Source of the DNA: a virus
Direction: 5' to 3' (one strand)
DNA length: 10,938 bases
Virus genome (UHGV): UHGV-1796162
Shown here: positions 98 through 10,938 of the stretch, one piece after another
Layout of the letters: each line of letters begins with the position of its first letter
Position numbering within the stretch: position 1 is the first letter of the stretch
Notes under the pieces: model-generated
Seen by the model: only the letters and a program-made list of their open reading frames with translations
What the model was told of the DNA's origin: nothing
The model's database searches: none
Made by a program: the position numbers and the translations under genes

Positions 98-2464
98 TTA
101 ATCGTAAATTGTAGTCCCTTCTGGAACACACTTCACATCAAAGCCTAAGAACTTACTCACTTCGATGGGTGACACTTTATTCCAATCTAAATGAGAAAGC
201 AAGAAGTTTTCTTGTTTTCTTTTTGAGAAGTAGTTTGTCACCTTAATAAACATACGGTCACCAGCTTTCTTAATTTTCTTGTAAAGCTTTGTATCATTAT
301 CAAGACACCTTTTCAAATCTTGCAACACACTAATAGTGTAAGTGTATGCAAATTGTGCAGCAACGTATTGGATTTTACCGAACATTGCCTCAACAGCATC
401 TTCATTACCTTCTAGGAAGATAGTTTTGTTTGTGTCCTGTGAATAGCAATAACCATCAGAAATCTTCCTGTTATTGAACGTAAAGTTTCTGGTAATAATC
501 CAACAGCTTGTAAGGTTAAGGACACCACGCATACAGATGCGTGTCATATACCTGTTATGATTAATCCAATGAACATCAGTTAAGCTGTCGTTCAAGAGCT
601 TCTCATCTACTTCAATCCAGTCTTCTGGTATCTTTTTCCAATTTGCTTTTCGGAAAACATAGACTGTCTTCCCTATAACATTAGCAACTGACTTAGCTAC
701 ATCTTCTGGAGATGAGCAAAAACATTCGCCATCAACTGTGTCACCAACTGCCTTGATGTAAAGCTGAGGTTCTTCAATTGTGTCTAAGTCTTCTGACACC
801 TCTGTGTATGAGGCTACACCTTCTGCTGGAACAGCTTTCCAGAGTTTTACAACACCTCTTACAGCTTCTTTACGCTGATAGTGATGTTCCTTATCAGACA
901 TTTTCACAATCTTTAACAAGCTTTTATCAAGTTTGTGTAGATTGATTAAGTCATCTAGCTCTTTTTCAGTCGAGAATACAAAGACAATACCATTGTATCT
1001 GTGAAACAGACTAGACTCACTGGCATAGTCTCGACATGCACCACGCAAGATTTGATTGCGTCCTACAGTCTTCTCAGTACCGTTTTTATTACGACGGTCA
1101 TTTATAACAAACAAAAACTGTTCAATTTGGCTTTTACGCATTGCACCAAAGATATTGAACATACTTGCCTCTTGAGTGTAGGAAAGCGATGTTGCACGAA
1201 TCTTACTCTCTAAAGAGTTGAACTTGACATAAGCAACTGGGTCATAAAGATAATCTACTTTAGGGATATTGTTCCCGTTCCTATCAACCTTAATATTACC
1301 TTTGCCGTCACGTTCATAAATGACTGAGCCGTCTTCTGCGTAGATAATTCCACGACGAATGTTTAGTAATTCTTCTTCCAGAGATTCAAGCTTAACACCA
1401 CCCCACTCTAGCTTTGGACACACAACATTAAACATCTCTCGTGAGTTCAAGCGTAACTCAGCATAAGCCTGTGCAGCATCCATGAGTGTAGGTTGACTAT
1501 TAACTTTCTTGATAACATCCTTTGTAATTGCTTCAGTTATCTTTTTAGTAGCCTCGATGATAACATTTTTTGTCGTGTCATTCATCTGCAATGCTTCACG
1601 AGAAGCTGCAATAGCAACTGAACCAATAGGCATGTAGATGTTTACAAGGTCTATGCTCCTGCGGAAAAATTCTGGTAATACTTTGAAGAAATCATCACCA
1701 AGTAATGCCTCCATATTAACTGGGTAGGCAATATTACCCATAACCACGTTAAACTCTGTTCTATTGCTGCTTGAACGCCAGCTATGCTTATGAGTCATGG
1801 CATCATAGACACCTTCTTCACGAGCAATCACATCCATATCTGCTAATATATCATTATACTCCACATTGCTCTCTGGTTTTACAGCAAAGTATGAGTATAC
1901 ATTACCAGCCTCTTCAAAGAACTTTGAAATACGGTGGTCAGCAACTGCCACACGTACAGCTAAACCATTAGGTTCTTTTGTTGGGTTAGTGGTCAGTTTA
2001 GTTACTTGAGGTATACCATTCTCAAGATAAACAGAGTACTTATTAACAACACCGTCAACATAGCTAGACACTGTGAATGACTGAGCAATTGCAAATGGTG
2101 ATTTTGAGCCGATACCCATTGCGCCAATGTAGTCATTAGAGTCATTCTTCGTAGAAGCCCCATAGTTTAGGTACAAACTCATAACTTTATCATGAGTCAA
2201 CCCAGTTCCAAAATCACGAACTTCAAAGTAAGGTTCAAAACGAGTAGGTAAATGCACATGGAATGGAATATTCTCTTTTCCAGCTTCTTTCTGAGCATCT
2301 ACTGCGTTACATGACAGTTCACGAATCACTGCCCTTTCTTTAAAGGTATATACACCAGAACTCAAAAGGCTGAACATTTCAGGTGTCATTGTAATCTGTG
2401 CTTGAGACGTCTCTAAAGAAGTTGAACTCTTAATCACTTCTGCGTGGTCGTTTACCATGCGCAT
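98..2464 (-). CDS. rIIA: rIIA-like protein (membrane-integrity / rII exclusion protein with N-terminal GHKL/HATPase-like domain), 788 aa
   Basis: ORF track 98..2464. N-terminal region FKERAVIRELSCNAVDA resembles the conserved Bergerat-fold motif of T4 rIIA (recalled as ...KIRAVVRELITNMIDA...), and the ~790-aa size is similar to T4 rIIA (725 aa). ATG at 2462..2464 preceded by AAGAGGAAAGTATT. Match is from memory of the T4 sequence. Confidence 0.75.
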   Translation of the reverse strand: MRMVNDHAEVIKSSTSLETSQAQITMTPEMFSLLSSGVYTFKERAVIRELSCNAVDAQKEAGKENIPFHVHLPTRFEPYFEVRDFGTGLTHDKVMSLYLNYGASTKNDSNDYIGAMGIGSKSPFAIAQSFTVSSYVDGVVNKYSVYLENGIPQVTKLTTNPTKEPNGLAVRVAVADHRISKFFEEAGNVYSYFAVKPESNVEYNDILADMDVIAREEGVYDAMTHKHSWRSSSNRTEFNVVMGNIAYPVNMEALLGDDFFKVLPEFFRRSIDLVNIYMPIGSVAIAASREALQMNDTTKNVIIEATKKITEAITKDVIKKVNSQPTLMDAAQAYAELRLNSREMFNVVCPKLEWGGVKLESLEEELLNIRRGIIYAEDGSVIYERDGKGNIKVDRNGNNIPKVDYLYDPVAYVKFNSLESKIRATSLSYTQEASMFNIFGAMRKSQIEQFLFVINDRRNKNGTEKTVGRNQILRGACRDYASESSLFHRYNGIVFVFSTEKELDDLINLHKLDKSLLKIVKMSDKEHHYQRKEAVRGVVKLWKAVPAEGVASYTEVSEDLDTIEEPQLYIKAVGDTVDGECFCSSPEDVAKSVANVIGKTVYVFRKANWKKIPEDWIEVDEKLLNDSLTDVHWINHNRYMTRICMRGVLNLTSCWIITRNFTFNNRKISDGYCYSQDTNKTIFLEGNEDAVEAMFGKIQYVAAQFAYTYTISVLQDLKRCLDNDTKLYKKIKKAGDRMFIKVTNYFSKRKQENFLLSHLDWNKVSPIEVSKFLGFDVKCVPEGTTIYD

Positions 2465-3000: not shown

Positions 3001-3025
3001 ATTAAAAAGGCTCCCGTAGGAGCCT
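3001..3025 (-). terminator. Rho-independent terminator downstream of the Nampt-like gene
   Basis: On the minus strand: stem GGCTCC-TACG-GGAGCC (plus 3009..3024) followed by TTTTTAATTT. Lies between the Nampt stop (3040) and the ORF111 start (2986). Confidence 0.6.
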
Positions 3026-3039
3026 CTTATCATATACTT

Positions 3040-4821
3040 TTAAAGCTGCTTGTCAATATTATTTCGAATATCACCAAGAGATGTGTAACCGTACTGCTCA
3101 GAGTCACTAAAGACTAAACGTAAAGCACAAGCTGGGTGGTCAAGTGCATCTGCAAAGCTCTGGAATCCATAGCCATCTACAGCTTTCAACTTATCACCAT
3201 CCCACATAGGTGCTACACCACCAAAAGCAGACTTCTTAACACCACTATCTGTTTTAGGGTCTTTTGCAAGCATAATCTCTTTACCACCAATGCTTGCAAG
3301 AGTTGCTTTAACAGCAAATGCAAAGGTGTCACGAGTCATGTACTGGTAAGTGTAAGAGCCTACGCCAAACACTACGTTAGAGCTTGCAAAACCCATTTCA
3401 TACAGACGCTTCAGGATTTCGTTTGCACGTTCCAGCGTGATAGAGTCACCATAGATAAGGCCGATATGCTCATCCAGTACCTTAAACCCTTTAGAGTTAA
3501 TAGTTCCCCCAAAGATGTTATACAGTGTCTTGATAGCTCCATCAATCTCCGCTACAGGACGTGTTACAACGTTTGCAGAACCAACCATATAAGCATTTTT
3601 CAACAGCACTGTATCAGCAACTTCAAAGTCTTCTCTGTCAACAACCATTTCGTAGCCTTCTGACAGTAGCCATCCAGCAATACCATAATTGATGTTTTCA
3701 AGCTTCATGTTCAGGACAGAGTTCAGCATTGTGTCACTTGCCTCTAGCTTGCTTAGGTGCTCGTAATAAGCCTTCTTAGCACACTCTAAGTGAATTGCTT
3801 TATAACCTGTGACAATATGTACAGGGTCTCCAGAGTCAGGGCGAATTACCAGTTTGCCATCACGTTCCATAATTTCTTTACGGAGTGCTGGTAAGATTTC
3901 TGACACAGTTCTCCAGAAGTTGTAAGTATCTGAAACAATACTTGCAATACCAGTTGGGTAAGTTTCTGTTAAGAAACGACGGAAGGTTTGTAACTCACCT
4001 TTAAAGCGTCTTTCTTCTTCAATCAGTTCATTACCACCTTCCCAAGCAATGTTTGCACACATTACAGAGTGTTCAGTGGCTGGTACAGAGCTACCAATAT
4101 CAGAAATTGGGTAAGACTGTCCATAGATGCGTTTAGCCGTGTATACAGCAGGAAAACTGTCAGTTCCTTTAAAGCTGGTTAAGTGACCTACAGCGTTAAA
4201 TGCGTCATCAGTAAAGCCGGACATACCACGCATAGCAAAGTCATGACACTGATAAGGTAAATGTAAGTCGTTGTCACAAGTAAGGTCAGCCCACTTCTTA
4301 CAGATGCGTTTATAGTGCAATGCAATAGTTGCAATGGTACAAGCTTTCCAAATCTCAGCAGAGAAAGCATCTTCCAGATACCCTGCTACCCAATGGAAAC
4401 CTGAAACAGTGTTCTGGAAGACAATCATTGGGACACGCATTGGAACAACTGTGCCTTCTTCTACAGCGTATACTTCGACTGGCAGATAACCTAAGTCGTG
4501 AAGTGCTTCCCAATGCTCTCGACCAATAGCATCTTTGCCCAGAACACCGTTCATGACTTCTAAGATTTCGTCAATTGCTTCTTTTTTGTCACGTTCAAAG
4601 AAAGTGGCGTTCCAATGGTCTATCAAGTAATCTTTAACAAAACGTTGAATACCAAAAGCCACTACACCGTCAATTGCCAAAGGGCTGTTAAACCATTTGT
4701 CACTACGTGGTGTCAGGTTCAACATAAGATATTGCGTAGCATCTGGATACTGATATATATGTGATGCCTTGTAAGCATCTGCGTTTAAACCTGCTGGCAC
4801 TGCATAAAGTGATTTAGTCAT
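3040..4821 (-). CDS. nadV: Nicotinamide phosphoribosyltransferase family protein (Nampt/NadV-like; alternatively a nicotinamide ADP-ribose transferase of the phage NAD+ reconstitution pathway), 593 aa from the ATG
   Basis: The track ORF starts at TTG (4839); I place the start at ATG 4819..4821 (MTKSLYAVPAGL...) preceded by TGAGAGAGATTAAAAAG. Family motifs recalled from human NAMPT: NADAYKASHIYQYP (vs ATDSYKVTHYKQYP), LVIRPDSGDP (vs LIIRPDSGNP), INSKGFKVLDEHIGLIYGDS (vs [20 protein letters not shown]). It is ~100 aa longer than canonical Nampt. Confidence 0.85.
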   Translation of the reverse strand: MTKSLYAVPAGLNADAYKASHIYQYPDATQYLMLNLTPRSDKWFNSPLAIDGVVAFGIQRFVKDYLIDHWNATFFERDKKEAIDEILEVMNGVLGKDAIGREHWEALHDLGYLPVEVYAVEEGTVVPMRVPMIVFQNTVSGFHWVAGYLEDAFSAEIWKACTIATIALHYKRICKKWADLTCDNDLHLPYQCHDFAMRGMSGFTDDAFNAVGHLTSFKGTDSFPAVYTAKRIYGQSYPISDIGSSVPATEHSVMCANIAWEGGNELIEEERRFKGELQTFRRFLTETYPTGIASIVSDTYNFWRTVSEILPALRKEIMERDGKLVIRPDSGDPVHIVTGYKAIHLECAKKAYYEHLSKLEASDTMLNSVLNMKLENINYGIAGWLLSEGYEMVVDREDFEVADTVLLKNAYMVGSANVVTRPVAEIDGAIKTLYNIFGGTINSKGFKVLDEHIGLIYGDSITLERANEILKRLYEMGFASSNVVFGVGSYTYQYMTRDTFAFAVKATLASIGGKEIMLAKDPKTDSGVKKSAFGGVAPMWDGDKLKAVDGYGFQSFADALDHPACALRLVFSDSEQYGYTSLGDIRNNIDKQL

Positions 4822-4842
4822 CTTTTTAATCTCTCTCAAAAT

Positions 4843-4858
4843 GGGGCTTAAAAGCCCC
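4843..4858 (-). other. GC-rich stem-loop (GGGGCT-TAAA-AGCCCC) between the Prs-like and Nampt-like genes
   Basis: 6-7-bp perfect stem read directly. On the minus strand it is followed by ATTTTGAGAGAG, i.e. only a short U-run, so it is a possible partial terminator or processing/stability hairpin. The stem sequence is nearly identical to the hairpin at 68..87. Confidence 0.45.
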
Positions 4859-4868
4859 CTATAAAGTT

Positions 4869-5750
4869 TTAATCAAGGTTTGCTACAGTAACTTGACCAT
4901 AATGTGTTAAGCCACGGTCTTTAGCTTCCCCTAAAGAGTTTGTAGTGTAAATGTGGTCAATACCATTGTCAAGTAAGTTTTCAACACCTTTAGAGAAAAT
5001 ACCATGAGTTACATAAAGTTCCACACGTTTTGCACCTGCTTCACGAAGATGTTTTGCTGCTTCTACGAAGGTTCGACCACCATCACAGATATCATCAAGA
5101 ATCATGACGGTTTTATCGGTCAAATCAACATCATCAAGGATTCGCATACCAGTAATTTCACCAGTCTTAAGGTTACGCACTTTAGACATTATGATATATG
5201 GTTTATCCACCTCTTTAGCGGCATCTTTAGTCTTCTTAGCTGCACCTGCATCTGGGGCTACTAAGAAATCAATGCGCGGGTCACTTGCAAAGTGTACTGC
5301 AATTTCCTTTTGAGGAATACTCTGGAAGCAGTTAAATAGGTTATCTGGTACATAACTGTGAGGGTCAACTGCACAGACTGCACCAAATCCCATTGCATTC
5401 ACCTGCTTAGCAAAAACCTTTAAAGCTGCTGCATCACCTTTAAACATGTGACGGTCATATCGTGCATTTGGTAAGTAGTAAAAAATGACAGTCTTTAAGG
5501 CATATTCATGAGGAACTAAATCATCAATTGCTTCTTTAGCAAGTGCCACAGCAAACAATGTGTCTTTATCATAACCTTTTACAATCATAATCACATTGTT
5601 GATGGATGATGCTGCGTGAGCAGTAAAGTCAACAAGCTCTTGTGAAAAGTGTCCACCAATCTCACCAGAAGGGAACTGGATGAGGTTAAACTCTTCTTCA
5701 TGAGACCCTTTTGTCGGTGAATGAATTATAACACGGATAGATGTTTTCAT
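4869..5750 (-). CDS. prs: Ribose-phosphate pyrophosphokinase (PRPP synthetase, Prs) family protein; alternatively an ADP-ribose pyrophosphokinase, 293 aa from the ATG
   Basis: The track ORF starts at TTG; I place the start at ATG 5748..5750 (MKTSIRVIIHSP...) preceded by TGAGAGTAAAACT. Type I PRTase ribose-phosphate binding loop VMILDDICDGGRTF (cf. Prs ...DD.IDTGGT) and a DPHS segment resembling the Prs DLHA region. Size matches Prs (~300 aa). Confidence 0.8.
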   Translation of the reverse strand: MKTSIRVIIHSPTKGSHEEEFNLIQFPSGEIGGHFSQELVDFTAHAASSINNVIMIVKGYDKDTLFAVALAKEAIDDLVPHEYALKTVIFYYLPNARYDRHMFKGDAAALKVFAKQVNAMGFGAVCAVDPHSYVPDNLFNCFQSIPQKEIAVHFASDPRIDFLVAPDAGAAKKTKDAAKEVDKPYIIMSKVRNLKTGEITGMRILDDVDLTDKTVMILDDICDGGRTFVEAAKHLREAGAKRVELYVTHGIFSKGVENLLDNGIDHIYTTNSLGEAKDRGLTHYGQVTVANLD

Positions 5751-5760
5751 AGTTTTACTC

Positions 5761-6039
5761 TCAATCAAAAGTTACGAATGTCACAGCCATAGCTGTTTTG
5801 CATTTTTGTGGATTCACAATGTGATAGATTACTGAACAGTTACCTGTGCTATCTGGTACTGGTTTTGTCCAAGTGCGTTCAACATTTGGTTCACCTAGTT
5901 CTTTGTAGAATCCGTTTGTGTGACGGTCAATCATCTCAAGAGCTAATGGGTCTGGTATATGGCCACGAATCATATACATCTCACAACCATTTCCAGCATC
6001 ACTTATTAGGTCTTTTATTTCCCAATCTGCTTTAGCCAT
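5761..6039 (-). CDS. Hypothetical protein, 92 aa
   Basis: ORF track 5761..6039. Its ATG (6037..6039) overlaps the stop of ORF171, and its TGA stop is embedded in the RBS-like TGAGAGT of the Prs-like gene, so it looks translationally coupled within the operon. No motif recognised. Confidence 0.55.
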   Translation of the reverse strand: MAKADWEIKDLISDAGNGCEMYMIRGHIPDPLALEMIDRHTNGFYKELGEPNVERTWTKPVPDSTGNCSVIYHIVNPQKCKTAMAVTFVTFD

Positions 6040-6547
6040 TGTAAGTTGCCCTATAAACTGTCTCGAACTTCAACAGGAGAGATATTGCCAAATCTGTATA
6101 GCTGTTGTCAAGCACATCTGGCATATTGTTTTTGATATATTTCTCTTGCTCTTCATAGGTCATCTTAGAGGTGCTTAAAAGTCTATCTCCTTGCTTCTGA
6201 TTATCAGCTTTAGTCTGGATAAACCAGTTTGCACAGTGATGTTCACCACCTTTTGTAACAGGCTTGTGGTGGCCTAATGTGAAGGACTGGTTACCTGTGT
6301 ATCTGCAAAGCTTATTGAGTACTGTAATGGTGTTCTTCACAACAAAACATTCATACAGGTTATCTATGGTGTAATGTGGGTAATAGTGGAATAGTGCTCT
6401 TTCACGAGTACTATCACGATTCCAGAGAATCATGTGATTAGAGTTAGAAGGGTCATATTGGTGGGAGTCAATGAACTCTTGACGTTCCTCAAAGCTGAGC
6501 CTTAACACTGACATTGCAGCCGAACGTTTCAGGTTTGACAGGTACAT
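6032..6547 (-). CDS. Hypothetical protein, 171 aa (His-rich segment LGHHKPVTKGGEHHCANWF)
   Basis: ORF track 6032..6547. ATG at 6545..6547 preceded by GGAGATAAT, directly after the terminator hairpin at 6566..6586. It is the first gene of the apparent operon ending with the Nampt-like gene. Confidence 0.6.
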   Translation of the reverse strand: MYLSNLKRSAAMSVLRLSFEERQEFIDSHQYDPSNSNHMILWNRDSTRERALFHYYPHYTIDNLYECFVVKNTITVLNKLCRYTGNQSFTLGHHKPVTKGGEHHCANWFIQTKADNQKQGDRLLSTSKMTYEEQEKYIKNNMPDVLDNSYTDLAISLLLKFETVYRATYNG

Positions 6548-6554
6548 ATTATCT

Positions 6555-6586
6555 CCAAAATAAAAAGGGAACCTTTACAGTTCCCT
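6555..6586 (-). terminator. Rho-independent terminator
   Basis: On the minus strand: GGGAAC-TGTAAAG-GTTCCC followed by TTTTTATTTTGG. Lies between the ORF103 stop and the ORF171 start. Confidence 0.6.
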
Positions 6587-6598
6587 AATCATAGACTC

Positions 6599-6910
6599 TT
6601 ACTGAACTAATTTCAATACTTTGAAGAAACCTTCTTCACCAATTGCATCATAGACCTTTTCAGTTGGCTTGATAAGGTTGTTCAAGCAGATTATTTTCTT
6701 ACGTTTCTTATCATAAGAAAGTTTAAGCTGCTTCAGCTCTTTATCATCTTCAGGGTGCTCATTGTACATCTTTACAGCCTCTTTGAAGCTAATGTAACCG
6801 CCGCCAAGAGTAAGGAAACCTGTGCCACAATAATGTGAATTGTGCTTATCAGCCATAAACTGACACAGAATAGAAATCTGAATTTTACGGGTGTTATAAA
6901 TCTTTTCCAT
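6599..6910 (-). CDS. Hypothetical protein, 103 aa
   Basis: ORF track 6599..6910. ATG at 6908..6910 preceded by GTAAGGATAACCAAA (RBS AAGGA). No motif recognised. Confidence 0.6.
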   Translation of the reverse strand: MEKIYNTRKIQISILCQFMADKHNSHYCGTGFLTLGGGYISFKEAVKMYNEHPEDDKELKQLKLSYDKKRKKIICLNNLIKPTEKVYDAIGEEGFFKVLKLVQ

Positions 6911-6921
6911 TTTGGTTATCC

Positions 6922-7179
6922 TTACTTGTTGCGTTTACGGTTACGAGCTTTCTTAGCTGCTCGTTTAATAGCTGCTGCACCAGACGGACGGTGGGCTTGC
7001 TTCTTACCACCTTTACCACGTCCAACATGAATGTAAGGCTGCTGTTCAATCTGGCTTGCAAGAACCTGTGCAACTGCTGAAGCATCGACACCAACCTGCT
7101 TTCCAGTCATAGCAATGATTGCTGCTGCTTTTGCCAGTGCAGCTAAGAAACCAGCTTTCATATTACCTAAAATTCCCAT
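6922..7179 (-). CDS. Small protein (85 aa) with a hydrophobic/amphipathic N-terminus and a polybasic C-terminal tail
   Basis: ORF track 6922..7179. ATG at 7177..7179 preceded by TGAGAGAGACTAAAA. N-terminus GFLAALAKAAAIIAMTG; C-terminus RAAKKARNRKRNK. Confidence 0.55.
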   Translation of the reverse strand: MGILGNMKAGFLAALAKAAAIIAMTGKQVGVDASAVAQVLASQIEQQPYIHVGRGKGGKKQAHRPSGAAAIKRAAKKARNRKRNK

Positions 7180-7194: not shown

Positions 7195-7473
7195 TTAAAG
7201 TTTAATACAGAACTGGTCTAGTTCTTCTTTTTCAATACCAACTTGAACATCTCCGTATGCTACGTCAGTGAAAAATGTCTGTCCATCATTAAATGCGCTT
7301 TCTGAATCAACGTGGAAAGTAACACGTTTAACAATCTCTGCTAGAGCTACTAACCCACTTTTCCCAAACTTCTCATGGGTCTTTACCATCCACTCATCAA
7401 GTGAGTTAATATTATAAGTCCACTTACCGGAGTAGCTACTCTGCTCTCCACTGACAGTCGCCTTGCCACCCAT
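7195..7473 (-). CDS. Hypothetical protein (about 92 aa if it starts at ATG 7471..7473; 64 aa if at ATG 7387..7389)
   Basis: Track ORF is 7195..7554. The internal ATG at 7471..7473 has a GGAGAAAAGAAT RBS but overlaps the nrdG 3' end by 38 nt in another frame. The ATG at 7387..7389 avoids the overlap but has a poorer RBS. Start is uncertain. Confidence 0.45.
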   Translation of the reverse strand: MGGKATVSGEQSSYSGKWTYNINSLDEWMVKTHEKFGKSGLVALAEIVKRVTFHVDSESAFNDGQTFFTDVAYGDVQVGIEKEELDQFCIKL

Positions 7474-7921
7474 ATTCTTTTCTCCACAAGTTTTGGTTGT
7501 CTGAACCACGATACGGTTTAACTGTTGGTTTAGATGAATCATACTTACCATCAATCACCACGTCAACATATTTCATCACATCTAAGTGAATCTTTTCGTG
7601 TAGTTGAAAACCTGTCCAGAGCCAGATAGACTTCTCTGGATAAACAGTTTTAATACGTTTGCATATGTTGGTAACCTCTTGAATATTTCTATCATCCAGA
7701 GGCTCTCCACCAAGTATCGACAACCCACTGATGGCCTCATCAGCCATTAACTTAATGATGCCGTAGAGGTTTGCATAAGTAAATACTTTACCAGCATTAA
7801 ACTTCCAAGACTCCCTGTTAAAGCATCCTTCACAGTGATGCTTACAACCAGCTACGAAGAGGCTTACACGAACCCCTTCACCATTAGCTGTGTCAAATGG
7901 TCGAATCTCCATGTAATTCAT
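7436..7921 (-). CDS. nrdG: Anaerobic ribonucleoside-triphosphate reductase activating protein (radical-SAM activase NrdG), 161 aa
   Basis: ORF track 7436..7921. Radical-SAM cluster motif CKHHCEGC (Cx3Cx2C) near the N-terminus. Overall resemblance to T4 NrdG as recalled (VSGC.H.C.GC..., ...VDGK...RGSSNQ...). ATG preceded by GGTGAGGTAACTAG. Confidence 0.85.
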   Translation of the reverse strand: MNYMEIRPFDTANGEGVRVSLFVAGCKHHCEGCFNRESWKFNAGKVFTYANLYGIIKLMADEAISGLSILGGEPLDDRNIQEVTNICKRIKTVYPEKSIWLWTGFQLHEKIHLDVMKYVDVVIDGKYDSSKPTVKPYRGSDNQNLWRKEYGWQGDCQWRAE

Positions 7922-8726: not shown

Positions 8727-9674
8727 TTACATAGAAATCCTATCCTTAATTTCTGCCATCTTAGCGTCATTCATTCGAGACTGGCCTTTAATTTTCGTGA
8801 ATGACAAGTACCCACACACCCTGTTAATCACAGAGATATCATGTGAATGGCAAACCTCACATTCTTCAACATCAGCCTTTGGTCTGTTACCACAATGTTC
8901 ACAGATTGCTAAGTCAAAGTTAAGTCCCTGATAGAAACCTTTCAACATACCTCTCGTAATACAACTTTTAAGTGCTGGCAAGTTTTCTGGGTTAGCTACC
9001 CTTACATACTGGATTCTACCACCTCTACAGATATGGAAGAAGGGTTCTTCTAAGTCCTGCTTCTCAAATGGTGTAATGTCTGCTGCAACATTCATATGGA
9101 AACTGTTTGTAAAGTATTCCTTATCAGAAACACCTTTGATAACACCAAACATGTCTCTGAACTGTTTTAACTGAGTTCCACAAAGTGATTCTGCTGGAGT
9201 ACCATAGACAGCATATAAGAATCCATCTTCATTTTTAAACTCTTCAGTTTTCATGTTAATGTATGCCAGAACATCGTATGTAAAACTACAGCTTCCAACT
9301 TCATGAAGCCGTTTACCTTCAGCAAGAACAGATAGCTCATCAAGCGCAGTAACCCCAAAAGAAGCTGTGAAGGACTTCACAATATCCCAACCAACCCTGT
9401 CAGTAGGATTCTTAGTTCCTTTATACAGACCACCTTGTGTAAATGCAAGAGGGTTAGAACTTGCTGGCATATTAGCAATCATTTCGTAGCGTTTCTTGTG
9501 GAAGCTGCGAATTATTTCTAGGTACTTATCAAGCTCTTTCCAGAAATCTAAACCATTCTCTTTAGAATACTGGTAAATCATTGGTAAGTTCAAAGATACA
9601 GCACCAATGTTAGCACGACCTACATAAAACTCTTCACCATATTCGTTATGGTATGGTGATAAAAATGCTCTACA
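8727..9674 (-). CDS. nrdD: Anaerobic ribonucleoside-triphosphate reductase NrdD, exon 2 (C-terminal ~315 aa including the glycyl-radical and zinc-ribbon region)
   Basis: C-terminus carries CEHCGNRP...CEVCHSHD (Zn ribbon) and RVCGYLSF (glycyl-radical motif). The reading frame is open upstream of the track start (9593) to an in-frame TAG at 9696..9698 and contains CRAFLSPY. The exon 2 start at 9674 is inferred from the intron 3' end (...CCTGAACAACAAG|TGT) and from the conserved junction SPMG|CRAFL. Confidence 0.8.
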   Translation of the reverse strand, partial: CRAFLSPYHNEYGEEFYVGRANIGAVSLNLPMIYQYSKENGLDFWKELDKYLEIIRSFHKKRYEMIANMPASSNPLAFTQGGLYKGTKNPTDRVGWDIVKSFTASFGVTALDELSVLAEGKRLHEVGSCSFTYDVLAYINMKTEEFKNEDGFLYAVYGTPAESLCGTQLKQFRDMFGVIKGVSDKEYFTNSFHMNVAADITPFEKQDLEEPFFHICRGGRIQYVRVANPENLPALKSCITRGMLKGFYQGLNFDLAICEHCGNRPKADVEECEVCHSHDISVINRVCGYLSFTKIKGQSRMNDAKMAEIKDRISM

Positions 9675-10416
9675 CTTGTTGTTCAGGTAAGTTCGCTAAG
9701 CTTACCCCGCTTTATTCAAGCTGCTTACTGTCGCCAGTAAGTCCAGACTATATCTTCTACTTATTTCTAAGTAGCGTACCATTTCGAGTCGCTTGACCCT
9801 ACACCGCTACATTCATCACGGTTAGTCGTTCGGCATTTAGATGTATTCAAACTCATATTCGAAGTTATTATGCTCTTTTACACCCTTCAATATTGAAGAG
9901 ATGGTCTTGCGATTGTGTCCAAGTATATTGGATAACTCTCGTATTGACTTAGTAACAATAACTTCCTTTGTCACTTTGTGTGTGGCTTTCACGGCATATG
10001 AACGCTTGTGGAACTTGTAACATCCGTTCTCATAACCCTCTTTAGCATTCTCAGAATGAGTACCCCATTCTAAGTTAGATGCGTGGTTATTTAGTTTGTT
10101 ATCGTCCTTATGTTTTACAATTGGAAGATTATTCGGGTTAGGTACATATTTCTCAGCAACTAACCTGTGGACATACATGTCACGATTCTTCTTACCGTAA
10201 AACCTCACTTTCATATACCCAGTGTTGGATTTCCACTGCGTAAGCTCTACACCATTTTCCCTAAAGACTTTTCCATCTTCAGTGACGTGATAGTTTGGCA
10301 TGTAAGACTCCTATGTTGTATAGTTTCTTACATCGTACATCATTTAGCACAGGATTGTCTACATCTGTAGAGTTTCCCTGTTTAGGCACGTTTTAGATGA
10401 GCTATAGAGCTTGTTA
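9675..10416 (-). mobile_element. Group I self-splicing intron (T4 td/nrdD-like, ~742 nt) interrupting nrdD and carrying a homing-endonuclease ORF
   Basis: Exon 1 ends ...ATGGGT followed by an immediate in-frame TAA (cf. T4 td 5' splice site ...GGGU|UAAUUGAGG). Conserved core-like elements on the minus strand: CCTAAACAGGGAAACTCTACAGATGTAGACAATCCTGTGCTAAAT at the 5' side; GGGTCAAGCGACTCGAAA, AGAAGATATAGTCTGG and GGGGTAAGCTTAGCGAACTTACCTGAACAACAAG at the 3' side. These closely resemble the T4 td intron as I recall it. Exact boundaries are +/- a few nt. Confidence 0.75.
9837..10301 (-). CDS. HNH family homing endonuclease (intron-encoded), 154 aa
   Basis: ORF track 9837..10301. HNH-type motif YVHRLVAEKYVPNPNNLPIVKHKDDNKLNNHASNLEWGTHSEN and a C-terminal helix-turn-helix-like IRELSNILGHNRKTISSILKG. 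ATG preceded by ATAGGAGTCTTAC. It lies wholly inside the intron. Confidence 0.8.
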   Translation of the reverse strand: MPNYHVTEDGKVFRENGVELTQWKSNTGYMKVRFYGKKNRDMYVHRLVAEKYVPNPNNLPIVKHKDDNKLNNHASNLEWGTHSENAKEGYENGCYKFHKRSYAVKATHKVTKEVIVTKSIRELSNILGHNRKTISSILKGVKEHNNFEYEFEYI

Positions 10417-10938
10417 ACCCATCGGTGAAATTACCTTGCCAGAACGCTCAAAAGCTTCTGCTACAGCACCATGACCAGATACACTTAAGAAATCTGGATA
10501 CATTGCTTTAGAGCAGCACTCAATAGCTTTACTGTACAGGTGGCCTTGACAGATATTCTCATTATGTCTCTTCTGGTCATAAATATAAACCAGTTTAGGG
10601 AATACAACAGGCTTCTTGCTCTTACCTTGTCCATTCATACGAACATCTAGGAGAGTACTTGCAATTATATATTGCAGTCGGTTATCTTCATTGGACATAT
10701 CTGAGTCAAGTAACCCGAATGTCAAAGTTGTGAATGCAAAATCCCCACGACTACAAGGTACAGTATTTAGTTTCATTTCAAGTGACTGGAAACCTTGAGT
10801 TAGCTCAATCTGTAGCTGCTCCATGACATAATTGTGGTAATGCTCTTTAGGAATACCATAAGATGCTGCTTTCTCAGCATGATAGCGTAGAGACTTCTTA
10901 GCATACGGTACAAGTACCTTATCAATCTCTGCTAAAGT
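10417..10938 (-). CDS. nrdD: Anaerobic ribonucleoside-triphosphate reductase NrdD, exon 1 (partial; the 5' end lies beyond the right edge of the window)
   Basis: The frame of track ORF 10414..10824 stays open, with no stop, up to position 10938 (TLAEIDKVLVPYAKKSLRYHAEKAASYGIPKEHYHNYVMEQ...). It ends ...KVISPMG immediately before the intron 5' splice site. Joining to exon 2 gives ...SPMGCRAFLSPY..., matching the conserved class III RNR active-site Cys region as I recall it. Confidence 0.8.

Follow-up and report, generated by a model that had tools for sequence, protein, structure and literature searches.

Two genes, ORF171 and ORF92, lie directly upstream of a Prs-like/Nampt-like enzyme pair in a stretch of viral DNA of 10,938 nucleotides (nt) (UHGV virus genome UHGV-1796162, called the window below). 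The pair was identified as NARP1, which consists of Adps and Namat and was defined experimentally in genes 79-80 of phage Bas63 (JohannRWettstein), where ORF171 and ORF92 correspond to genes 77-78 (10.1101/2024.02.11.579819). A preliminary description of the window, made from the sequence alone, had suggested that the two genes could supply accessory components of the NAD+ module. We arrive, with moderate confidence, at another reading, namely that ORF171 is a dispensable protein of HNH fold, that ORF92 is coupled to it, and that the adjacency of both to NARP1 is inherited and not required. Most likely, the role of ORF171 and ORF92 is a conditional one that depends on the host and has no part in NAD+ reconstitution. 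Both were already catalogued as hypothetical proteins, and an HNH-like note already exists on a homologue, gp200 of phage phi92. The window belongs to Felixounavirus and, over region 4800-6950, shares 97.8% identity with Escherichia phage allfine.

The preliminary description had found no assignable motif in either protein, and had proposed that a His-rich segment of ORF171 could bind metal or nucleotides. The first statement was wrong for ORF171, where LGHHKPVTKGGEHHC forms strand 1 and the loop of an HNH motif. The second came near the mark in its metal part, because the segment comprises strand 1 and the GG loop of the HNH catalytic core. The ORF171 family was aligned using 17 diverse members (22-95% identity). 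R22, D62, E66, N78, H93, G100, G101, N107 and Q134 are invariant in this alignment, and P96, H103, W108, Q111 and N116 (the last in at least 90%) are among the residues that are nearly so, giving the consensus fTLGHxxPxxKGGxHxxxNWfIQxxxxNxxxGD. The spacing from H93 to N107 to N116 (14 + 9 residues) is that of the HNH pattern, here in the form H-N-N. The AlphaFold2 model of ORF171 (predicted local distance difference test 92.4, predicted template modelling score 0.88) shows a beta-beta-alpha arrangement of strands 89-93 and 108-112 and helix 113-119, in which H93 closes strand 1, N107 precedes strand 2 and N116 lies within the helix, all of them canonical positions.

The remote-homology and structure searches that the preliminary description had called for were run, and both the PHROG HNH profiles and the predicted structure point to an HNH fold. 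When each of the 17 members was scanned separately, phrog_3500 was matched by all, the HNH family phrog_9645 by seven (best E 4.9e-6), the HNH family phrog_2214 by six (8.2e-5) and the endonuclease VII family phrog_1035 (T4 endonuclease VII) by three (4.1e-5); five more HNH families were matched by one to three members each. The HNH profile matches span residues 58-140 of ORF171. In NCBIfam the family matched only IscB, weakly and in its HNH region (E 0.06). In a Foldseek search of the PDB with the ORF171 model the best hit was below significance (E 0.35), and 17 of the 23 top hits were HNH domains (Cas9 HNH, Gme HNH, ScoMcrA), the only kind of structure that recurred among these weak hits. 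For the phi92 homologue gp200, the authors of its annotation had noted a 'predicted HNH endonuclease-like fold'.

Several observations weigh against this assignment or against catalysis. Pfam gave nothing significant for the ORF171 protein of the window. Its HNH family was matched by only 3 of the 17 members, and the matches to HNH and HNH_5 had E of 0.0085 or higher and fell short of the gathering score; neither curated profiles nor solved structures gave a significant match. In addition, Gly (G92) precedes the catalytic His in 16 of the 17 members, where an Asp, Glu or His is usual; Asp is found only in one member (P0050). Because Gly precedes the catalytic His, the catalytic activity of ORF171 is uncertain, although beta-beta-alpha-metal nucleases of the DRGH type are active with Gly in this position. 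It was also reported that host plasmid DNA stays intact in infections by SUSP1, SUSP2 and Felix O1-type phages, and that SUSP1 and SUSP2 are without hydrolytic endonucleases (PMC5241400).

The replaced acidic residue and the undegraded host DNA in SUSP-type infections (PMC5241400) would fit a protein that keeps the HNH fold without nuclease function, as a nucleic-acid- or protein-binding factor, e.g. a regulator or a helicase cofactor; the position of the family upstream of a UvrD-type helicase in Stephanstirmvirinae fits this as well. However, H93, N107 and N116, the residues most diagnostic of catalysis, vary little or not at all among members of 22-95% identity, which is unexpected for a dead fold, and the DRGH-type nucleases show that Gly before His does not preclude activity. 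We therefore regard a non-catalytic ORF171 as quite unlikely. Very probably, ORF171 is a divergent stand-alone protein of the HNH (beta-beta-alpha-metal) superfamily, and its catalytic residues appear conserved well enough that activity is a reasonable expectation. The family most likely forms a distinct HNH clade, in which zinc-finger cysteines are absent, Gly stands before His and the helical wrapping is unique. As judged from these residues, ORF171 may act as a nuclease that would cleave or nick a specific nucleic-acid substrate by metal-dependent phosphodiester cleavage, with His93 as the general base, Asn116 as a metal ligand and Asn107 bracing the hairpin. A broad DNase activity is unlikely. 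Two particular roles were considered and set aside: that of a host-DNA-degrading nuclease seems unlikely in view of the intact plasmids released by SUSP1 and SUSP2, and that of a terminase-associated HNH protein (HK97 gp74 type) was rejected, since a long distance separates ORF171 from the large terminase gene, and its knockdown in SUSP1 was scored 'Not Fit'.

An exhaustive HMMER search of 1.84 billion representatives gave only about 14 true relatives of ORF171; two further library matches (P0044, P0051) were rejected as repeat proteins (PDZ-like and WD40). Searches of PDB sequences with the family and motif-only profiles hit only the repeats of Staphylococcus protein A, where each repeat had E >10 and the total was a sum over repeats, and these hits were discarded as an artefact. 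No match was obtained by hhalign between the family and a two-sequence endonuclease VII alignment, which is too shallow for a fair test, and PADLOC gave no hits for ORF171 or ORF92. Two distant family members found no relatives in viral contigs. Nor did a six-sequence alignment, searched with only two peptide patterns, find any in one genome for each of 185,579 bacterial and archaeal species, which fits a family confined to virulent phages.

The label 'HNH endonuclease' is attached in many GenBank records (allfine, wV8 and, via a note, Felix O1) to ORF103 (6599-6910), in which neither an HNH hit nor an HNH motif was found. It looks like a propagated mis-annotation, the HNH motif being in the unannotated neighbour ORF171.

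Since ORF171 has an HNH motif, it might be a free-standing or domesticated homing endonuclease, a selfish element that came to lie upstream of NARP1 by chance. HNH homing endonucleases are abundant in Felixounaviruses (9837-10301 inside nrdD of the window; between Adps and Namat in Felix O1 and SUSP1), and the ORF171 locus is mosaic. The distribution of ORF171 is, however, not sporadic: at 60% identity or more it is present in 247 Felixounavirus-type records, compared with 253 with a matching Adps. It occupies the same locus across genera, its divergence follows the lineages down to 30-45% identity, and its ratio of nonsynonymous to synonymous substitution rates (dN/dS) is 0.10-0.15. Among the Pfam families it matches neither NUMOD nor IENR nor any other DNA-binding module, and gives no HNH_3, GIY-YIG or LAGLIDADG hit, whereas the genuine homing endonuclease at 9837-10301 matches HNH_3 at 1.3e-10. 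By its distribution ORF171 is not a homing endonuclease, and we give this explanation scarcely any weight.

As for the link to NARP1, we looked for homologues outside the NARP1 context and for relatives that keep the Prs/Nampt pair without ORF171 and ORF92, and found both. Homologues of Adps are present in about 1,088 records, which include Pseudomonas, Vibrio and Mycobacterium phages, the ORF171 family in 429 and ORF92 in 231; most of the Adps-carrying records are without the ORF171 family. In phage alia the ORF171-family gene is at 66.5 kilobases (kb) and a stand-alone NARP1 with its own upstream gap at 136.8-139.5 kb, a distance of about 70 kb; about 78 kb separate the two in Serratia phage KKP_3264. 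A local tblastn search of the complete anhysbys genome (149,335 bp) found the ORF171-family gene, immediately upstream of a UvrD-type helicase in this Phapecoctavirus; Adps and Namat queries, from the window or from alia, matched nothing there at E <=1e-3. In phi92 (Justusliebigvirus), whose orthologue matches 133 records in total, a single gene of 158 amino acids (gp199) separates the family gene from a UvrD-type helicase downstream. It is the nrd (ribonucleotide reductase) region, and not NARP1, that surrounds the family most constantly. Distant relatives (29-34% identity) in T4-like Straboviridae (L008 2661-6501, L015 1751-5462) stand upstream of SprT, endonuclease VII and nrdD.

Closer to the window, the gene order is ORF171 homologue, an unrelated gene of 98 amino acids, Adps and Namat in phage Roscha1 (Kolesnikvirus), and ORF103 homologue, ORF171 homologue, two tiny open reading frames, Adps and Namat in Wc4-1 (Ounavirinae). 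An 84.7-kb metagenome contig (L012) has NrdG, ORF171 homologue, ORF103 homologue, Adps, two genes and Namat, and a 4.3-kb contig (L013) has Adps, Namat and ORF171 homologue. Homologues of ORF103 (DUF7390) recur beside the ORF171 family in Ounavirinae-like contigs (Wc4-1, L009/L010 and, in reversed order, L012). In the T4-like L008 and LPCS28 a canonical NadV-type Nampt, 25-28% identical to Namat, precedes the ORF171 homologue by about 2 kb, without Adps; here the family has one more neighbourhood with an NAD gene.

Natural variants bear on the same question. In two Felixounaviruses, Salmonella phage S19cd and GEP101, an N6/N4 DNA methylase gene takes the place of ORF171 codons 39-171 and ORF92 codons 1-57, behind the same promoter/terminator composite, and Adps and Namat are retained. 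Methylase genes also lie at this locus next to Adps in three more Felixounaviruses, SP4, SEP1 and SP2, according to a partial match and the annotation. The methylase segment of S19cd (L007) extends over 3001-4091, and the ORF171 start codon is deleted; 39 Klebsiella phage records are hit as well by a query that spans the segment, a possible hint at the source of the methylase. In Escherichia phage Pr103Blw (L020, 1285-2235) two extra genes (154 and 150 amino acids, no Pfam hit) stand between ORF92 and Adps, so that the ORF92-Adps coupling is broken.

With regard to phenotypes, the CRISPRi-ART fitness values in SUSP1 are -0.29 for agp073 (ORF171), -1.50 for agp074 (ORF92), -0.59 for Adps and 0.10 for Namat, all of them scored 'Not Fit' (PMC11879866 supplement 16), which indicates that the four genes are dispensable on the laboratory host. 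A deletion of genes 79-80 in Bas63 keeps genes 77-78 and yet sensitises the phage to SIR2-HerA; knock-in of the Adps and Namat cassette of another phage lets phage SBSphiJ overcome type I Thoeris defence; and the purified NARP1 enzymes make NAD+ from ADP-ribose (ADPR), nicotinamide and ATP (10.1101/2024.02.11.579819). A literature search by locus tags and Felixounavirus transcriptomes yielded no functional data on the ORF171 and ORF92 genes.

A rival reading, in line with the proposal of the preliminary description, makes ORF171, ORF92 or both true NARP1 accessories like Adpp or RyDEP. Such an accessory could be a phosphodiesterase that supplies Adps with ADPR made from an immune-derived nucleotide, or it could inhibit a host NADase. 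The two genes appear to be co-transcribed and translationally coupled with Adps, there is precedent for additional genes in NARP1 operons (the Macro-domain protein Adpp, in 15%, and RyDEP), and NARP1 or a Nampt is present somewhere in the genome of every lineage examined except Phapecoctavirus. Moreover, three points tell against the independence that we propose. Adjacency to NARP1 survives two rearrangements (Adps-Namat-ORF171 homologue in L013, NrdG-ORF171 homologue-ORF103 homologue-Adps in L012); the T4-like relatives of ORF171 are about 2 kb from a NadV-type Nampt; and the data on dispensability come from a laboratory strain without the defences that matter here, in which NARP1 itself was also 'Not Fit'. 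The retained adjacency to NAD genes could reflect a shared anti-defence island. The rearranged adjacency and the proximity to the T4-like Nampt keep the accessory idea alive. It is nevertheless not supported by the distribution: the family occurs without NARP1 in anhysbys and unlinked to it in 133 Stephanstirmvirinae records, ORF92 is restricted to three genera, the methylase variants lose both genes and keep NARP1, and NARP1 mostly occurs without either gene. Pfam scans detected no nucleotide-handling domain in ORF171 or ORF92, and, to our knowledge, HNH enzymes act on nucleic acids. We consider it rather improbable that either gene is such an accessory, and give an anti-defence accessory role of the two a similarly low probability. 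Still less likely is an unrecognised Ounavirinae counter-defence module, in which ORF171 would be an HNH-fold phosphodiesterase directed against a nucleic-acid or nucleotide-derived immune component and ORF92 its partner or an effector inhibitor, the two complementing NAD+ reconstitution. The inherited-adjacency reading instead has ORF171 and ORF92 functionally independent of NARP1, with both riding in the NARP1 transcription unit through the inherited synteny of the Ounavirinae nrd region.

ORF92 is a lineage-restricted small acidic protein. It has 92 residues, an isoelectric point (pI) of 5.2 and an alpha/beta composition, and its conserved blocks are MYMIRGH and KPVPDxTGNCxVxYH. By tblastn at E <=0.01 it matched 231 phage records, nearly all of them Escherichia, Salmonella, Shigella or Citrobacter phages or Felixounavirus by name; those checked for taxonomy were Felixounavirus, Mooglevirus or Suspvirus, and no relatives were detected outside these three genera. 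Hits in Pfam (E <=1), NCBIfam and PADLOC were nil. The structure prediction was marginal, and the fold matches were generic. The 98-amino-acid gene that Erwinia phage Roscha1 has in place of ORF92 showed no similarity to it by BLASTP or hhalign; its product is zinc-ribbon-like, and its homologue search gave one cluster.

ORF171 and ORF92 might instead be a nuclease and its inhibitor (or partner), in which the acidic ORF92 would bind and restrain or direct the HNH protein; the pair could serve as an anti-defence or host-takeover nuclease. The conserved 8-nt overlap of the two genes, the acidic ORF92 against a near-neutral ORF171 (pI 7.8) and the joint loss of both genes in the methylase variants would agree with this, as would the small gene, often overlapping, that follows the ORF171-family gene in most lineages. 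That following gene is, however, non-homologous between lineages (phrog_4726, the zinc-ribbon-like phrog_2993, phrog_20923, or an ORF103 homologue): it is unrelated in Roscha1, Wc4-1, L012, L013 and phi92, and is missing in anhysbys, where the UvrD helicase directly follows. Furthermore, ORF171 and ORF92 alleles shuffle independently, and knockdown of agp074 alone did not kill SUSP1. Such a pair therefore seems unlikely to us.

The shuffling is apparent from the identities. ORF103 is 91-92% identical to its SUSP1 and Maleficent counterparts and 49-51% to those of Felix O1-type phages, and ORF92 is 80% identical to the former and 68% to Felix O1-type phages (Bas63). For ORF171 the order is reversed, with 73-75% to SUSP1 and Maleficent and 95% to Bas63. 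Across window positions 5761-6910, compared with L002 and L016-L019, ORF103 and ORF92 are thus of the Mooglevirus/Suspvirus type (80-92%; 49-69% to Felix O1 types) and ORF171 between them is of the Felix type. This gene-by-gene mosaicism indicates recombination breakpoints at gene boundaries.

Both genes are present on the minus strand where the preliminary description had placed them (Table 1), and they are genuine conserved phage genes: dN/dS is 0.12-0.17 for ORF92 and 0.13-0.21 for Adps, next to the 0.10-0.15 of ORF171, as expected under purifying selection. All of its structural claims were confirmed. The overlap of the ORF171 stop with the ORF92 start at 6032..6039 is the octamer ATGGCTAA, which holds both TAA (6034-6032) and ATG (6039-6037), and it is annotated identically in six relatives of three genera (allfine, wV8, Maleficent, phiSUSP1, Felix O1 and Bas63); ORF92 translation is coupled to that of ORF171. 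The ORF92 stop, TGA 5763-5761, does lie inside the ribosome-binding site of Adps, within a GAGAG Shine-Dalgarno-like stretch 7-8 nt before ATG 5750. Relatives have their Adps start annotated at this ATG; the mechanical list of open reading frames extends Adps to TTG 5768, which is probably not its true start. Of the 257 phage records that match region 4800-6950, 221 cover at least 80% of this 2.15-kb block.

The clean terminator reported ahead of ORF171 was recovered by the terminator scan as the hairpin AGGGAACT-GTAAA-GGTTCCCT followed by a T-run (6586-6556). It folds at -15.5 kcal/mol in context and is invariant in seven phages of three genera, and terminator t124 of Felix O1 is an independent prediction of the same hairpin (PMC3185647). 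As a class, terminator-like sites are not enriched in the window (5 found, 3.6 +/- 2.0 in shuffles); it is the conservation of this site, not the site count, that supports it. A sigma-70-like promoter abuts the hairpin. In the same seven phages (Felixounavirus, Mooglevirus, Suspvirus) its -35 element is invariant and its -10 element is TATGAT or TACTAT. Erwinia phage Roscha1 has the same layout in non-coding DNA of unrelated sequence (TTGCAA, 17 nt, TAGTAT, 2 nt, GGACTC...GAGTCC, T-run, GGAG, ATG), and Pectobacterium phage Wc4-1 has a weaker version at the equivalent place. A start about 7 nt past the -10 element falls inside the 5' arm of the hairpin, and RNA beginning at about 6581 folds at -1.8 instead of -15.5 kcal/mol. 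Transcripts from upstream would thus stop at the hairpin, and new ones, if the promoter is used as its sequence suggests, would begin within the hairpin arm and escape the terminator. Such an upstream stop with a start inside the hairpin would make ORF171-ORF92-Adps-Namat one four-cistron unit between two promoter/terminator composites. The claim that no terminator intervenes between ORF171 and a weak hairpin after the Prs-like gene also stood, since the scan has no minus-strand terminator-like site between 6566 and 3028; a strong terminator follows Namat at 3028-3005. The conserved upstream terminator, the abutting promoter, the conserved overlap and the absence of a strong terminator before the end of Namat support the single transcription unit with translational coupling that the preliminary description had proposed. 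By reverse-transcription PCR, Felix O1 ORFs 124-128 form one middle temporal class, all maximal at 25 min (PMC3185647).

The gene order of the window, every gene of which is on the minus strand, was taken from the annotation of relatives and from domain scans: nrdD, small open reading frames, nrdG, ORF119, ORF85, ORF103, ORF171, ORF92, Adps, Namat, ORF111 and rIIA.

Table 1. Genes and sequence elements of the window around ORF171 and ORF92
Feature	Position	Strand	Remarks
nrdG	7436-7921	-	
ORF103	6599-6910	-	DUF7390, phrog_4462
Sigma-70-like promoter	6588-6616	-	TTGAAA-17 nt-TATGAT; scan 10/12; -10 ends 1-2 nt before the hairpin
Intrinsic terminator	6556-6586	-	hairpin + T-run; predicted to end upstream nrdG-ORF103 transcripts
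ORF171 Shine-Dalgarno	6553-6556	-	GGAG
ORF171	6032-6547	-	phrog_3500; = bas63_0077 = Felix O1 ORF125 = SUSP1 agp073
HNH core of ORF171	6188-6292	-	residues 86-120; strand 1 (89-93) ends in H93; GG loop with H103; N107; strand 2 (108-112); helix 113-119 with N116
ORF92	5761-6039	-	phrog_4726; = bas63_0078 = Felix O1 ORF126 = SUSP1 agp074
Adps	4869-5750	-	Prs-like first enzyme of NARP1; ATG 5750 is 10 nt past the ORF92 stop
Weak terminator or stabiliser hairpin	4843-4858	-	GGGGCT-TTTA-AGCCCC, only four U after; between Adps and Namat
Namat	3040-4821	-	Nampt-like second enzyme of NARP1; annotated start ATG 4821
Second promoter + terminator composite	3005-3056	-	TTGACA-16 nt-TATGAT, 1 nt, 10-bp hairpin, T-run, GGAG, ATG 2986; predicted to close the four-gene unit
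rIIA	98-2464	-	

Composites in which a promoter abuts a terminator and is followed by a T-run, GGAG and ATG were seen at both ends of the four-gene unit (window 6556-6616 and 3005-3056) and, with unrelated sequence, in Ounavirinae of Erwinia and Pectobacterium (L003 3917-3985, L006 ~3910-3997). The rIIA-rIIB intergenic region holds, at 63-92 on the minus strand, a promoter-like TTGACA-18 nt-TAGAAT (11/12) whose spacer is itself a hairpin (AGGGGCTTCAAAGCCCCT), which is another way to overlap a hairpin with a promoter than that of the abutting composites. In Felix O1 and phiSUSP1 an HNH homing-endonuclease gene (L017 3188-3513; L018 3189-3513) is found in the Adps-Namat gap, where the window has the hairpin at 4843-4858; a mobile gene thus interrupts NARP1 in some relatives. 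In the window, an HNH_3 homing-endonuclease gene at 9837-10301 divides nrdD into an N-terminal part (10414-10824 and upstream) and a C-terminal part (8727-9593); Rfam yielded nothing at gathering scores, intron families included. Some records named for other hosts (MG065664 and MG065668, Campylobacter phages A132 and A126; GU169904, Staphylococcus phage SA1; MG065639 and similar ones) contain Felixounavirus or phi92-like sequence of 91-99% identity and are probably mislabelled or contaminated assemblies.

These results bear on three matters. Recent work has shown that extra genes of NARP1 operons (Adpp, RyDEP) can extend counter-defence; ORF171 and ORF92 were tempting candidates for the list of NAD+ accessory enzymes, and they are now removed from it as not being general companions of NARP1. 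The annotation is corrected in that ORF171, and not ORF103 with its GenBank label, carries the HNH motif. Finally, the genome paper of Felix O1 left open how transcription passes the many terminators of this phage (PMC3185647). The promoter-abutting-terminator layout, if confirmed, would explain it.

Compared with known systems, ORF171 and ORF92 resemble Adpp, a Macro-domain ADPR-1''-phosphate phosphatase, and RyDEP, a RyR-domain glycosidase of cyclic ADPR, in being extra genes co-expressed in a NARP1 operon. Unlike these, they have no Macro or RyR (PF02026) domain (no Pfam hit at E <=1), the ORF171 family is found outside NARP1 operons, and no small-molecule chemistry is predicted; by domain and by distribution ORF171 is not an accessory of the Adpp or RyDEP type. 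In colicin E9 DNase/Im9 and Anabaena NucA/NuiA the gene for a beta-beta-alpha-metal nuclease is followed by that for a small acidic protein, and ORF171 is likewise followed by a translationally coupled small acidic ORF92; as far as the genes alone are compared, it differs from such nuclease/immunity pairs in that its partner is not conserved across lineages and the alleles recombine independently. The DRGH-type nucleases (Serratia nuclease, EndoG), which are much larger and secreted or mitochondrial, carry Gly directly in front of their catalytic His, and one Asn is the sole metal ligand from the protein. ORF171 shares the Gly and, as predicted, the Asn ligand, with no sequence or profile match to them found here. 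With the phage HNH endonucleases (phrog_9645, 2214 and 1035) and with Cas9/IscB and Gme HNH, ORF171 shares the beta-beta-alpha-metal core, the His/Asn/Asn placement and the 14 + 9 spacing; unlike phage HNH endonucleases, it has no CxxC zinc-finger pairs, carries Gly before His, stays below the Pfam gathering scores and is not mobile. Closest are phi92 gp200 and its Stephanstirmvirinae orthologues (VOG1451, phrog_3500), which are 40-42% identical to ORF171 and belong to the same family; they differ from ORF171 in location, since a UvrD-type helicase lies downstream of them and NARP1 is about 70 kb away (alia) or missing from the genome (anhysbys).

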